Assembly: GCA_964364395.1 (NCBI GenBank)
Contig: CAYILY010000002.1
Location: forward strand, 1-28,312
Direction: 5' to 3'
Length of the DNA stretch: 28,312 nucleotides
Source of the DNA: an uncultured Gammaproteobacteria bacterium
GTDB lineage: Bacteria > Patescibacteriota > Patescibacteriia > UBA2169
Below are positions 18,611-21,327 of the stretch, in pieces. Below the pieces are notes generated by a model. It did no database searches and was not told the origin of the DNA. It was given only the letters and a program-made list of their open reading frames with translations. Both the position numbers and the translations under genes were made by a program. The number at the start of each line of letters is the position of its first letter. Position 1 is the stretch's first letter.

Positions 18611-19027
18611 TCACAGGCCTTCGAAAGTGGCGTAGGCAACCGCGTTATCGCGTTCAATGCCTACGCGCAGTTGGCCGTCGATTGGCCGTTCCAGAATGAA
18701 GGAGATGGTGCCGGGTTCGCCGCGCTTGGGGCGGGAGAAGAAGCGTTTGCGGAACGCGGCACCCGTGCTATCTTCAAAAATGACCGCAAAGTCGCCCCTG
18801 ATATCGCAGTTGACGTCCACCACTAAGGCTCGCTCGCGCGGTATTTTGGAATTGGTTTTGAGGTGGTCGCGATCCGGATGTTCCAAAAAAGGAATGACCA
18901 AGATTTCAAAATGATCAAGGATATGGAGCAGATCAACATCTTGGCGAACTTCAGTAATTGGTTCGTTTTGAAAAGCCGTCGCGACCAGAAAAAAGCCGCA
19001 AATGATGGTTAAGGCGATGTCAAACAT
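18611..19027 (-). CDS. Hypothetical protein with N-terminal membrane anchor or signal (138 aa)
   Basis: AAGGAGG SD; its 5' end is duplicated at 20110-20179. Confidence 0.8.
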   Translation of the reverse strand: MFDIALTIICGFFLVATAFQNEPITEVRQDVDLLHILDHFEILVIPFLEHPDRDHLKTNSKIPRERALVVDVNCDIRGDFAVIFEDSTGAAFRKRFFSRPKRGEPGTISFILERPIDGQLRVGIERDNAVAYATFEGL

Positions 19028-19114
19028 GACCCCGCCTCCTTTCTTATTGGGAGTGATTTTAAAGGTACAAAGTATTATCTTATGTAATACGATACCTTGG
19101 GCGGTTTGTCAAAC

Positions 19115-19153
19115 AAAAAAACCGCCTACCGAGCACAGGGTGCAGGGTAGGCG
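19115..19153 (-). terminator. Terminator of cargo gene 1
   Basis: Minus strand CCGCCTACC...GGTAGGCGG followed by TTTTTTTG. Confidence 0.75.
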
Positions 19154-19219
19154 GGTGAATAAAGAAGGTACATGGCGTTAGGCGCGCGACTGCGATGAGT
19201 GCGCGTCTAACCAGGGTTG

Positions 19220-19792
19220 TCAGTCCTTTGGGCCCCATCTGACCAGCCGGTCAGGCGAGAACCCGACCGAGACACGGAAGAACTTTCCTTCCGTTCCGTT
19301 GCCCCACCAGATGCGGGGCAAATGGATTATCGTGCCCGGGATGGGGGAGATGGTGCCGCCGCCGGCCGAGATGTAGGCGCCGGCATTGGCGCCAATCGGC
19401 GGCAGATAACCTCCGACGCGGACATCCATGCTCCGGAAGATCCGGACACCTGCCTCCATGCCCAGACCAGCGCCGGGCATGACTGTGGTGGCGAACACTC
19501 CGCGCCGTCCACCACTGTAGGAGTCAAAGGACATGGACATGTTCTTGGCCATGTCAGGGAGATCATTCGTGGGCGCTCCCACGAAATATCTGGCTTCCGA
19601 GCCGGTGTAGGCGTCCTGCTGGGCGAGTAGGCCCAACAGCCAGACACCGGTGACCAGCCCCACCTGTTCGAAGTGGGCCGCGACCCCGGCCTTTTCCCGC
19701 TCCGATTCCGGCAGCAGGGCCAGCAGGGGATTGGCCATGGCAGACAGGATGACCAGGATGGCGGCGGCGAGGACTGCAGATATCTTGTTCAT
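19220..19792 (-). CDS. Hypothetical exported protein (cargo 1, 190 aa)
   Basis: Signal-peptide-like N-terminus; Gly-rich C-terminal half with alternating hydrophobic pattern; GC-rich. Confidence 0.8.
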   Translation of the reverse strand: MNKISAVLAAAILVILSAMANPLLALLPESEREKAGVAAHFEQVGLVTGVWLLGLLAQQDAYTGSEARYFVGAPTNDLPDMAKNMSMSFDSYSGGRRGVFATTVMPGAGLGMEAGVRIFRSMDVRVGGYLPPIGANAGAYISAGGGTISPIPGTIIHLPRIWWGNGTEGKFFRVSVGFSPDRLVRWGPKD

Positions 19793-19877
19793 TTATTTCC
19801 CTTTCTAGGGATGTGCCTATCCCGCATTTGCGGGGCGGGCGGGTTTTGGAAGTACGTTGTTTGTTTTGTGTAAATAC

Positions 19878-19906
19878 ATCATACCATATATACAAAATAT
19901 TGTCAA
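19878..19906 (-). promoter_or_regulatory. Sigma70 promoter of cargo gene 1
   Basis: Minus strand TTGACA-17 nt-(TGG)TATGAT. Confidence 0.8.
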
Positions 19907-20030
19907 TGTCAAAAATAGGCTTAAATTAGCCAATTTATTTTCCCCAATTTTAGCCAAAAAATAAGGGGTTTGGACTTCGTTTTTTGGAAAATGTGTGCTA
20001 AAATTAGGATAAGTAAAAGGAGGAAAATAT

Positions 20031-20123
20031 ATGACTAAAACCATGGAAATTATCAAGGAAAAAGCTGTGCCGATTCTTAAAGAGGCGGGTGTTACCCGCT
20101 CGGCTTTGTTTGGTTCGTTTTGA
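20031..20123 (+). pseudogene. Truncated MNT antitoxin copy
   Basis: First 29 codons encode the same peptide as 21044-21130, then TTT TGA at the duplication junction. Confidence 0.9.
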
Positions 20124-20179
20124 AAAGCCGTCGCGACCAGGAAAAGGCCGCAAATGATGCTTAAGGCGATATCGAACAT
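20110..20179 (-). pseudogene. 5' fragment of a second copy of the 138-aa gene, continuing as a chimeric ORF to 19817
   Basis: MFDIALSIICGLFLVATAFQNEP vs MFDIALTIICGFFLVATAFQNEP; homology stops at the TTGGTTCG junction. Confidence 0.85.
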
Positions 20180-20261
20180 AACCCCTCCCTCCGGTTAAAT
20201 GGTTTTATGAAGGTGCGATGTAATATCTATGTAATACGACACCTTGGGCAGTTTGTCAAAC

Positions 20262-20294
20262 AAAAAAACCGCCCGCAGTGTCCAACCGGGGCGG
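20262..20294 (-). terminator. Terminator of cargo gene 2
   Basis: Minus strand CCGCCCCGG...GCGGGCGG followed by TTTTTTTG. Confidence 0.7.
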
Positions 20295-20328
20295 CGTGAA
20301 TCGAAAGAGCATGGTTTTATTCCCCTTG

Positions 20329-20799
20329 TTACTTATAGGGCTGCCAGTCTTCTGGGTTCGTGGAGATCGAGAAGAATCCGGAGTGCCAGACGCTCCCGTC
20401 AGGAGCGTGGACCCCGATCCCGAAAGGCGAGAACGAGACCGGTATAACCTCGCCCTTGCCTTTCGTGACGGTAATCTGGTAGATTCCTCCACCAGCATTC
20501 GCGGGAATGACTCCGCCGTCCGACTTTTGCCTAATGAGCGGAACGCCCTCGGCGACCAGCTTGGTCACCACTTTATGGGTGGCAAAACCGGCGAACTGGG
20601 CTGTAGTGTCCGACCGGGCCGAGTCCAAGTTCCCCACCCATGTGGCCAGACCGTCTTTCATGGGTAGATCGGCTATCTTCTTGTCGCCGATGCTCATCAC
20701 GACCTCGGAGAGGTCGGATTTGATGTTGACGGTCGCCTCGGCCAAGGCGCCGGAGGCGAGGGCCAGGGCGAGCAGGGTGCACAGCAGCGTGCGTTTCAT
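20329..20799 (-). CDS. Hypothetical secreted protein (cargo 2, 156 aa)
   Basis: Sec signal MKRTLLCTLLALALASGALA|EA; beta-rich mature part. Confidence 0.82.
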   Translation of the reverse strand: MKRTLLCTLLALALASGALAEATVNIKSDLSEVVMSIGDKKIADLPMKDGLATWVGNLDSARSDTTAQFAGFATHKVVTKLVAEGVPLIRQKSDGGVIPANAGGGIYQITVTKGKGEVIPVSFSPFGIGVHAPDGSVWHSGFFSISTNPEDWQPYK

Positions 20800-20890
20800 G
20801 ACTTTATCCTTTCACAGGATGTGCCTGCCTCGCATTTGCGGGGCGGGCGGGTTTTAGGAAGGTGCGTTTTTTGGCTTTTTGTGTAAATAC

Positions 20891-20919
20891 ATCATACCAT
20901 ATATAGAAAATATTGTCAA
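20891..20919 (-). promoter_or_regulatory. Sigma70 promoter of cargo gene 2
   Basis: Minus strand TTGACA-17 nt-(TGG)TATGAT. Confidence 0.8.
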
Positions 20920-21043
20920 TATCAAAAATAGGCTTAAATTAGCCAATATAATTTCCCCAATTTTAGCCAAAAAGTATAGTATTTGGACTTCGTTTTTTGG
21001 AGAAACTATGATAAAATAAAGACAGGCAAAAGGAGGAAAATAT

Positions 21044-21327
21044 ATGACTAAAACCATGGAAATTATCAAGGAAAAAGCTGTGCCCATTCTCAAAGAAGCC
21101 GGGGTTACCCGTTCGGCTTTGTTTGGTTCGGTGGTGCGCGGGGAAGAAACCAAAGACAGCGATGTTGATATATTAATCCAGCCACCCGAGGGAATGTCCT
21201 TGTTTGGTTTCATTGGTTTAGAGCATAAACTTGAAGATGTTTTGGGCCGTAAGGTTGATCTGGTAAGTTATCGGGCGATTCACCCGGTGCTAAAAGATCA
21301 AATTTTAAGCGAACAAGTGCCTATTTT

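Follow-up and report, generated by a model that had tools for sequence, protein, structure and literature searches.

How did a bacterium with a small genome come to hold two versions of one short locus head to tail, set in the same flanking sequences and enclosing two different genes? The arrangement lies in a 28,312-nt stretch of DNA, referred to here as the window (contig CAYILY010000002.1 of assembly GCA_964364395.1), which is deposited as an uncultured Gammaproteobacteria bacterium and carries the GTDB lineage Patescibacteriota; Patescibacteriia; UBA2169. The locus is bounded on one side by a gene for a 138-aa protein (the 138 gene) and on the other by MNT, a nucleotidyltransferase antitoxin gene followed by a toxin gene, HEPN; between them stand two genes for putative secreted proteins, cargo 1 (c1) and cargo 2 (c2). 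An earlier reading of the DNA (the original prediction) had proposed a defined slot whose content is exchanged between a conserved leader and a conserved terminator. The explanation that we favour, and consider fairly probable, is that two alleles of the locus that had already diverged were stacked by a homologous crossover at one end and an illegitimate joint at an 8-bp microhomology at the other. The window is contig C2 of a 769-kb bin (103 contigs, 89% complete, 47.2% GC) that comes, judging from the names of matching ENA records, from Hainich groundwater metagenomes; the data are short reads at low coverage (about 6x) from a site that holds several related strains.

Architecture of the tandem

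The locus consists of two head-to-tail units, 18958-20109 (unit 1) and 20110-21130 (unit 2). Along the plus strand, each presents the 5' end of the minus-strand 138 gene with its ribosome-binding site (RBS), untranslated region (UTR) and TTGACA promoter, then an intrinsic terminator and a cargo gene on the minus strand, followed by a leader some 80 nt long, promoters arranged back to back and the first 29 codons of MNT. That the units share an ordered frame around the cargo had been proposed in the original prediction and is confirmed by direct repeats, on the left between 18958-19036 and 20110-20188 (91%) and between 19081-19126 and 20228-20273 (96%), and on the right between 19800-19847 and 20808-20855 (88%) and between 19864-20117 and 20877-21130 (90%). 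The shared blocks are 88-96% identical, with the left flank taken whole at 76% (76.2%), and since they reach 250 nt at about 90% identity, the repeat is not a matter of chance. GCATTTGCGGGGCGGGCGGG occurs in the 769-kb genome only at 19824 and 20832. The limits of the homology also fall where they had been predicted, at CATGG and near the RBS: on the left, homology peters out past AAAAAAACCGCC, the last common CATGG lying at 19171-19175 and 20310-20314, and on the right it begins about 8-10 nt upstream of each cargo start codon.

The octamer TTGGTTCG is present at exactly the three positions previously given for it, 18958-18965, 20110-20117 and 21123-21130, and its middle copy is the joint, where a truncated copy of MNT (MNT') meets an orphaned 5' end of the 138 gene (138'). 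The sequences that meet there share exactly these 8 bp, and the neighbouring bases differ. As an 8-mer it has an ordinary frequency, since the genome contains 27 copies where about 23 would be expected, and it was rejected as a specific recombination site on account of this chance-level frequency.

Comparison with a sister strain

Two contigs from another Hainich well (H51), L023 and L077, represent a sister strain; they come from separate assemblies and are 99.2% identical to each other. Their chromosomal neighbourhood is that of the window, and they carry a single array which, in the orientation of the window, reads 138, terminator T_B, c2', c3, c1', leader, promoters and MNT. The products of c2' and c1' are 87% and 77% identical to those of cargo 2 and cargo 1, respectively, while c3 encodes an unrelated protein of 167 aa. 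No internal fragments of MNT' or 138' were found in the array of L023 or L077.

If 18958-20109 is taken out in silico, the window and L077 can be aligned straight across the joint over 819 nt, at 97.8% identity and with one 1-nt gap. Two pieces that are contiguous in the sister strain match it at 95.6-100% identity: the body of the 138 gene (18612-18911) and the segment 20110-20508, which covers the left flank of unit 2 and the 3' half of cargo 2. Measured against that strain, unit 1 amounts to a clean insertion of 1152 bp.

The baseline between the strains is set by a Na+/Ca2+ exchanger gene (NaCaEx), with 0.015 synonymous substitutions per site (dS), by pheT (95.4% nucleotide identity) and by the neighbouring housekeeping genes (95-99%). 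The left flank of unit 1 is 75-76% identical both to unit 2 and to the sister strain, and that of unit 2 is 95.6% identical to L023. Similarly, the body of the live 138 gene is 98-100% identical to L023 and its 5' end with the UTR only about 76%, and the dead 138' closely resembles the sister strain's live gene. The cargo 1 allele has a dS of 0.56 from the sister copy. The right flank is mosaic. Because the neighbouring genes are nearly identical between the strains, a flank divergence of 24% cannot postdate a duplication in place. MNT' and the live MNT differ at six sites, and all six differences are synonymous (with a probability of 0.23 that a random change is synonymous, P is about 1.5e-4), so MNT' diverged inside a working gene. 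The two units thus diverged in separate genomes before their joining, and the earlier view of two alleles captured side by side is upheld by this prior divergence, as seen in the flank identities and the synonymous-only differences of MNT'.

Exchange at this locus extends beyond unit 1. Cargo 2 is itself mosaic, with 20359-20508 being 100% identical to L023 and the 5' half 72-96%. From 20509 to 21690, across the 5' half of cargo 2, leader 2, MNT and HEPN, identity to the sister strain is 54-96%, with a dS of 0.70 for MNT and 2.3 for HEPN, and it recovers at the start of gyrB. The alleles of the toxin-antitoxin pair have been replaced by recombination in the flanks, and at least one further allele replacement has occurred at the locus, which is why cargo 2 stands directly behind the leader here. 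Imported alleles make the locus a mosaic.

Proposed origin of the tandem

In the mechanism that we propose, the locus between the exchanger gene and MNT-HEPN/gyrB would be a recombination-prone, hypervariable islet with conserved ends, formed on one side by the 138 gene along with its own promoter and terminator and on the other by a structured leader and the MNT-divergent promoter. A 1152-bp piece of a diverged version of the locus, presumably taken up as DNA from a related strain, would have integrated into a resident version carrying cargo 2. Two events would have been required: a homologous crossover in the 138 gene, left of 18989, and an illegitimate joint at which the 8 bp of TTGGTTCG served as a microhomology between the MNT of the incoming DNA and the 138 gene of the resident. 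The process would have been insertion-duplication or homology-facilitated illegitimate recombination (HFIR). The outcome would mimic a tandem duplication, with two stacked alleles, each having its own promoter, leader, cargo and terminator, and with the dead MNT' and the orphaned 138' as the scar of the event (Table 1). Both cargos would probably be expressed. The live 138 gene would now combine an imported N-terminus with a resident body; the promoter of the orphan 138' would face through the scar toward cargo 1, and the duplicated promoter of MNT' would face antisense into cargo 2. The 120-aa open reading frame (ORF) that spans the joint is probably junk.

The locus shows three marks of HFIR or insertion-duplication: a homologous boundary (the body of the 138 gene, up to 18957), an 8-bp illegitimate joint and a diverged insert. 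ComEC, DprA and RecA are encoded in the genome, which makes DNA uptake plausible. Several points weigh against this reading. The position of the crossover is loosely bounded, by three clustered mismatches at 18924-18930, which may mark the imported tract, and by 31 nt of identity at 18958-18988. Public data yielded no donor haplotype (138, T_A, c1, leader, MNT) and no recipient haplotype as it would have stood before the insertion. The junction is supported at the level of assemblies, not of single reads, and transformation in this organism would be a capacity suggested by its genes. Finally, Campbell-type integration of a recircularised fragment would yield an identical product.

Table 1. Coordinates of the features of the tandem locus and its flanks in the window
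Feature	Position	Strand	Remarks
Live 138 gene (membrane anchor and beta-sandwich domain)	18611..19027	-	Chimera: codons 1-23 (18958-19027) of imported type, body of sister type
Unit 1, inserted allele, 1152 bp	18958..20109	.	138 5' end, UTR and promoter, T_A, hairpin H, cargo 1, leader, divergent promoters, MNT' 5' end
Intrinsic terminator T_A of cargo 1	19122..19154	-	T7 follows on the minus strand; type of the distant relatives L026 and L027
GC-rich 3' hairpin H	19177..19211	-	Directly past the cargo 1 stop codon; same element after c1' and c3 in L023
Cargo 1 (c1), 190-aa putative secreted protein	19220..19792	-	63% GC, third-position GC (GC3) 0.775
Leader 1	19793..19872	-	GC hairpin, then a hairpin pairing the Shine-Dalgarno sequence
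Chimeric 120-aa ORF across the joint	19817..20179	-	138' N-terminus running on through antisense MNT'
Promoter-like site of cargo 1	19878..19906	-	TTGACA, 17 nt, TG-TATGAT
MNT', truncated antitoxin gene copy	20031..20123	+	29 native codons, then Phe and stop; dead
Illegitimate joint (proposed)	20110..20117	.	TTGGTTCG common to MNT ('FGS' codons) and the 138 gene (reverse complement of 'NEP' codons)
138', orphaned 5' end (23 codons) of the resident 138 gene	20110..20179	-	Promoter and RBS retained
Terminator T_B of cargo 2	20269..20294	-	Type of the sister strain
Cargo 2 (c2), 156-aa putative secreted protein	20329..20799	-	60% GC, GC3 0.771
Leader 2	20800..20885	-	Two-hairpin layout matching leader 1
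Promoter-like site of cargo 2	20891..20919	-
Live MNT, nucleotidyltransferase antitoxin gene	21044..21331	+	Pfam PF01909 and PF18765 (E 3e-14); third TTGGTTCG inside, at 21123-21130
HEPN (HepT-like) toxin gene	21328..21675	+	Pfam PF01934, E 2e-29

Alternative explanations

The tandem might be an artefact, with two co-existing single-cargo strains concatenated by the assembler or by chimeric reads; the low coverage, the several related strains at the site and a Logan unitig of unit 1 that stops at both repeat borders would fit this. However, the 8 bp are the sole overlap at the joint, far below any assembler k-mer, and flanks that are 10-24% diverged would not collapse in a de Bruijn graph. Variants specific to each unit flank the joint 45-70 nt apart, inside one read length. 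An ENA contig of 8299 nt from sample H32 (L021) matches window 16148-24446 with two mismatches, both in pheT, and has the identical joint. The exact joint-spanning ORF is recorded on two contigs; the joint and this ORF stand on the 8.3-kb ENA contig and on that of the bin, a further, longer contig being counted with them. An artefact is therefore very unlikely. Logan unitig L022 was rejected as evidence on the junction, its ends at 18959 and 20044 being expected with or without the joint. Duplication in place requires that a multi-gene array (138', T, c2, c3, c1, L, P, MNT') was doubled at the 8-bp microhomology, after which the flanks diverged and each copy lost different cargos. The sister strain does hold c2 and c1 in the order that duplication followed by reciprocal deletions would need, and the repeated leader and hairpin elements could mediate precise deletions. 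Nevertheless, the flanking genes are nearly identical (dS 0.015) and the sister strain lacks the duplication, so the event would have to be very young, which is at odds with a unit 1 left flank 24% removed from unit 2 and a cargo 1 at dS 0.56 from its sister copy. The copies are not each other's closest relatives, as unit 2 shares 95.6% identity with L023 in the left flank but 76.2% with unit 1, and differences in MNT' that are all synonymous are not expected of a pseudogene decaying in place. We consider this origin quite improbable.

A dedicated exchange of cassettes was also considered, in which the leader and the hairpin or terminator modules act as recombination sites, in the manner of an integron without a known integrase. 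Unrelated genes do carry the same modules. The two-hairpin leader (L) precedes c1, c2 and c3 (sister copies at L023:880-955 and 1600-1687), and a related leader precedes the c2 homologue of a distant relative, L027. A GC-rich hairpin with its spacer (H) follows c1, c3 and the cargo of another relative, L026, and not c2. A second array with repeats, noted in the same window on first reading, also fits. Yet the one event that can be dated was joined inside two coding sequences and not at L, H or a terminator; TTGGTTCG has a chance frequency; and repeated stacking of alleles with common flanks would leave the same shared modules. Recombinase domains were absent from the window ORFs scanned, and the bin has a single tyrosine-recombinase fragment (PF00589), on another contig (C71). 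H ends in GTTAGGC...GTCTAAC, the reverse of the attC order as judged by the order of the ends alone, i.e. GTT...AAC. Such a system is highly improbable here. A looser version, in which L and H on at least four unrelated secreted-protein genes form a cassette scaffold that works without a recombinase, is still unlikely. If it held, repeated stacking and deletion would build and reshuffle small surface-protein operons in reduced-genome bacteria, with the fresh MNT'::138' scar as the opening stage and the sister strain's array of three genes, free of scars, as the matured product. Under the stacking of diverged alleles that we favour, the recurring L and H modules could be residues of earlier stacking, and substrates for precise deletions.

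Gene content of the islet

The sister array bears directly on the proposed slot. Since it holds homologues of both cargos and a third gene in one array, cargo 1 and cargo 2 are co-residents and not alternatives for a single position. The locus is an islet with conserved ends and variable content, amounting to one to three secreted-protein genes; the frame is made of these ends, and therefore any two versions of the locus share it. Two distant relatives add to the catalogue of cargos. In L027, a c2 homologue (60% identical) adjoins a terminator and a 138 homologue, and in L026 the tail of another cargo is followed by a hairpin and a T_A-like terminator, beside a 138 homologue and the exchanger gene. 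The comparison of relatives suggested with the original prediction thus bears out variable content at the locus, and a slot for a single gene is not borne out. Nor is exchange between leader and terminator supported, as c1', c3 and c2' stand together in the sister strain, the joint in the window lies within the coding sequences of both flanking genes, and no recombinase was found nearby among the window ORFs scanned.

The spacers c1'-c3 and c3-c2' of L023 (1552-1616 and 2228-2327) are duplicates of each other, with the hairpin, CTCTTTTCCTT.TTTTGTAT and AGAGAAAAGA.AAAAG.AG in common. A palindromic element, present in the window too at 7317-7367 and 15680-15715, interrupts the second spacer. The duplicated spacers suggest that the sister array of three genes itself grew through stacking at an earlier time.

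Relation to known systems

HFIR has been described in the natural transformation of Acinetobacter baylyi, Streptococcus pneumoniae and Pseudomonas stutzeri (de Vries & Wackernagel 2002; Prudhomme et al. 2002; summarised in PMC6382021), with joints of 3-10 bp (PMC6382021). The tandem resembles it in that one end is anchored by homology, in the 138 gene, the other is joined at an 8-bp microhomology, there is a net gain of foreign or diverged DNA, and genes for uptake and RecA are present. It differs in being a natural footprint, read from an uncultivated small-genome bacterium and not from an experiment, and in that the incoming DNA would be a diverged allele of the same locus, so that the product mimics a tandem duplication. 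This is a known way of keeping foreign DNA, in a well-preserved example, and not a new gene-swapping machine. The process being already known from transformable model bacteria, the value of the locus lies in a clean example and in its indication of a recombination hot spot. It is a natural footprint, resolved to the sequence, of how a diverged allele was acquired through an illegitimate joint at a microhomology, and a near-isogenic sister strain supplies the 'before' state. It shows how small-genome groundwater bacteria can carry a variable surface-protein locus in two versions at the same time, and how one operon can come apart into two units with independent promoters.

Tandem duplications with short junctions that form independently of RecA have been studied in Salmonella and Escherichia coli, and their copies are initially identical. 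The units described here are likewise head to tail, with a joint at a few bases common to otherwise unrelated sequences, whereas their copies are already 10-24% diverged and carry different genes. In S. pneumoniae, the duplications of transformation merodiploids are reportedly large, unstable and bridged by long repeats. Such merodiploids (PMC3784515) share with the tandem the partial duplication of a segment during genetic exchange, leaving two versions in tandem; here, in contrast, a unit of 1.15 kb is joined at a microhomology of 8 bp.

Flexible genomic islands of the replacement type, such as O-antigen and capsule loci, are exchanged via conserved flanks. The islet is similar in its conserved flanking genes, in content that is unrelated or deeply diverged between close strains, in its atypical GC and in exchange by flank recombination, as seen in the mosaic of cargo 2 and in the MNT-HEPN dS of 0.7-2.3 against 0.015 in the flank. 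Unlike such islands, it is tiny (one to three genes of 150-220 codons), and the replacement is non-reciprocal, with both versions kept. As in integron cassette arrays, unrelated small ORFs form a promoter-proximal array with a hairpin-forming element after each, but no IntI lies beside it, the ends of the hairpin run against the attC order and the joint is inside coding sequences.

Cargo proteins and the 138-aa protein

Both cargo proteins begin with a hydrophobic, signal-peptide-like N-terminus, in keeping with the signal peptides that had been predicted for them. They had also been called unrelated, and this stands: no similarity between them was found by BLASTP (E 0.36) or by profile-profile comparison with hhalign (probability 0.2%), and descent from a distant common ancestor is rejected at the sensitivity available to these methods. 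Neither has detectable similarity to the 138-aa protein. Cargo 1 against its sister copy has a ratio of nonsynonymous to synonymous divergence (dN/dS) of 0.30; c1 and c2 are both at about 0.3 and, being under purifying selection, are real genes.

Relatives of these proteins are rare. Cargo 1 has only two 90% clusters among 5.8 billion proteins, its own and the one whose contigs are L023 and L077. The c2 family counts 17 representatives in 1.84 billion proteins, including one from a metagenome-assembled genome of Ca. Portnoybacteria. Word-based homologue searches returned no more than 2-3 clusters apiece for c1, c2 and the 138-aa protein. The c2 profile had no matches in 400 other genomes sampled from the phylum and located no such locus in GTDB species genomes, and no cargo paralogues were found elsewhere in the bin. 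Pfam, NCBIfam and PHROGs gave no family match for the 138-aa protein, c1, c2 or c3.

The AF2 model of c2 is unusable (pLDDT 37). Residues 16-78 of the c2 profile gave repeated weak matches in two giant proteins with cadherin-like or Ig-like repeats (P0012 and P0019; 2315 and 2231 aa), which may reflect an Ig-like fold of the N-terminal part of c2 or an effect of composition. The AF2 model of the 138-aa protein (pLDDT 72), a beta-sandwich with a membrane anchor, has generic beta-sandwich matches only, with no structural match in the PDB at E<1e-3; none of its structural neighbours is informative. All these proteins can be described no further than as small and probably exported or at the surface, encoded beside an MNT-HEPN toxin-antitoxin pair. 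The GC3 of the cargo genes is 0.77, compared with about 0.5 for gyrB and pheT and a GC content of 47% genome-wide, yet the c2 family includes a Ca. Portnoybacteria protein.

Leaders, promoters and terminators

The fold has a z-score of -3.6 for leader 1 and of about -3.4 for the shared leader, and covariation is weak among the six sequences available. Rfam covariance models gave no match at E<=1 between 18400 and 21800, and a riboswitch in the shared leader was rejected for want of an Rfam match. The shared leader may be a translational control element. A search with a 20-mer of the leader retrieved only chance sites in GC-rich genomes and in JGI metagenomes.

The DNA upstream of the cargo promoters (19907-19960 and 20920-20975) is AT-rich and contains GGCT(T/A)AAATTAGCC and TTTTCCCCAATTTTAGCC motifs. 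These also occur upstream of genes in other genera and families (L010, L013 and L015), and at the promoter of the second accessory array of the window, at 10100-10175 on the minus strand, as AGCCTATTTT-TTGACA-...-TGGTAT. They look like generic promoter or operator architecture of this bacterial group and not like a feature specific to the locus.

Neighbouring genes

The gene order in the window is pheT, a 105-aa gene, NaCaEx and the 138 gene, then MNT, HEPN and gyrB on the far side of the cargos. MNT and HEPN adjoin, with a 4-nt overlap, and are predicted to form a toxin-antitoxin pair of the MNT-HEPN (HepT) type. The gyrB ORF (window 21677-25039) encodes 1120 aa and has, by eye, an intein-like insertion (with ... 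VHNS). Matches to RecA lie on two contigs of the bin, at C48:5242-5667 (model positions 121-262) and C11:15697-15858 (2-55); a contig break or an insertion may have divided the gene.

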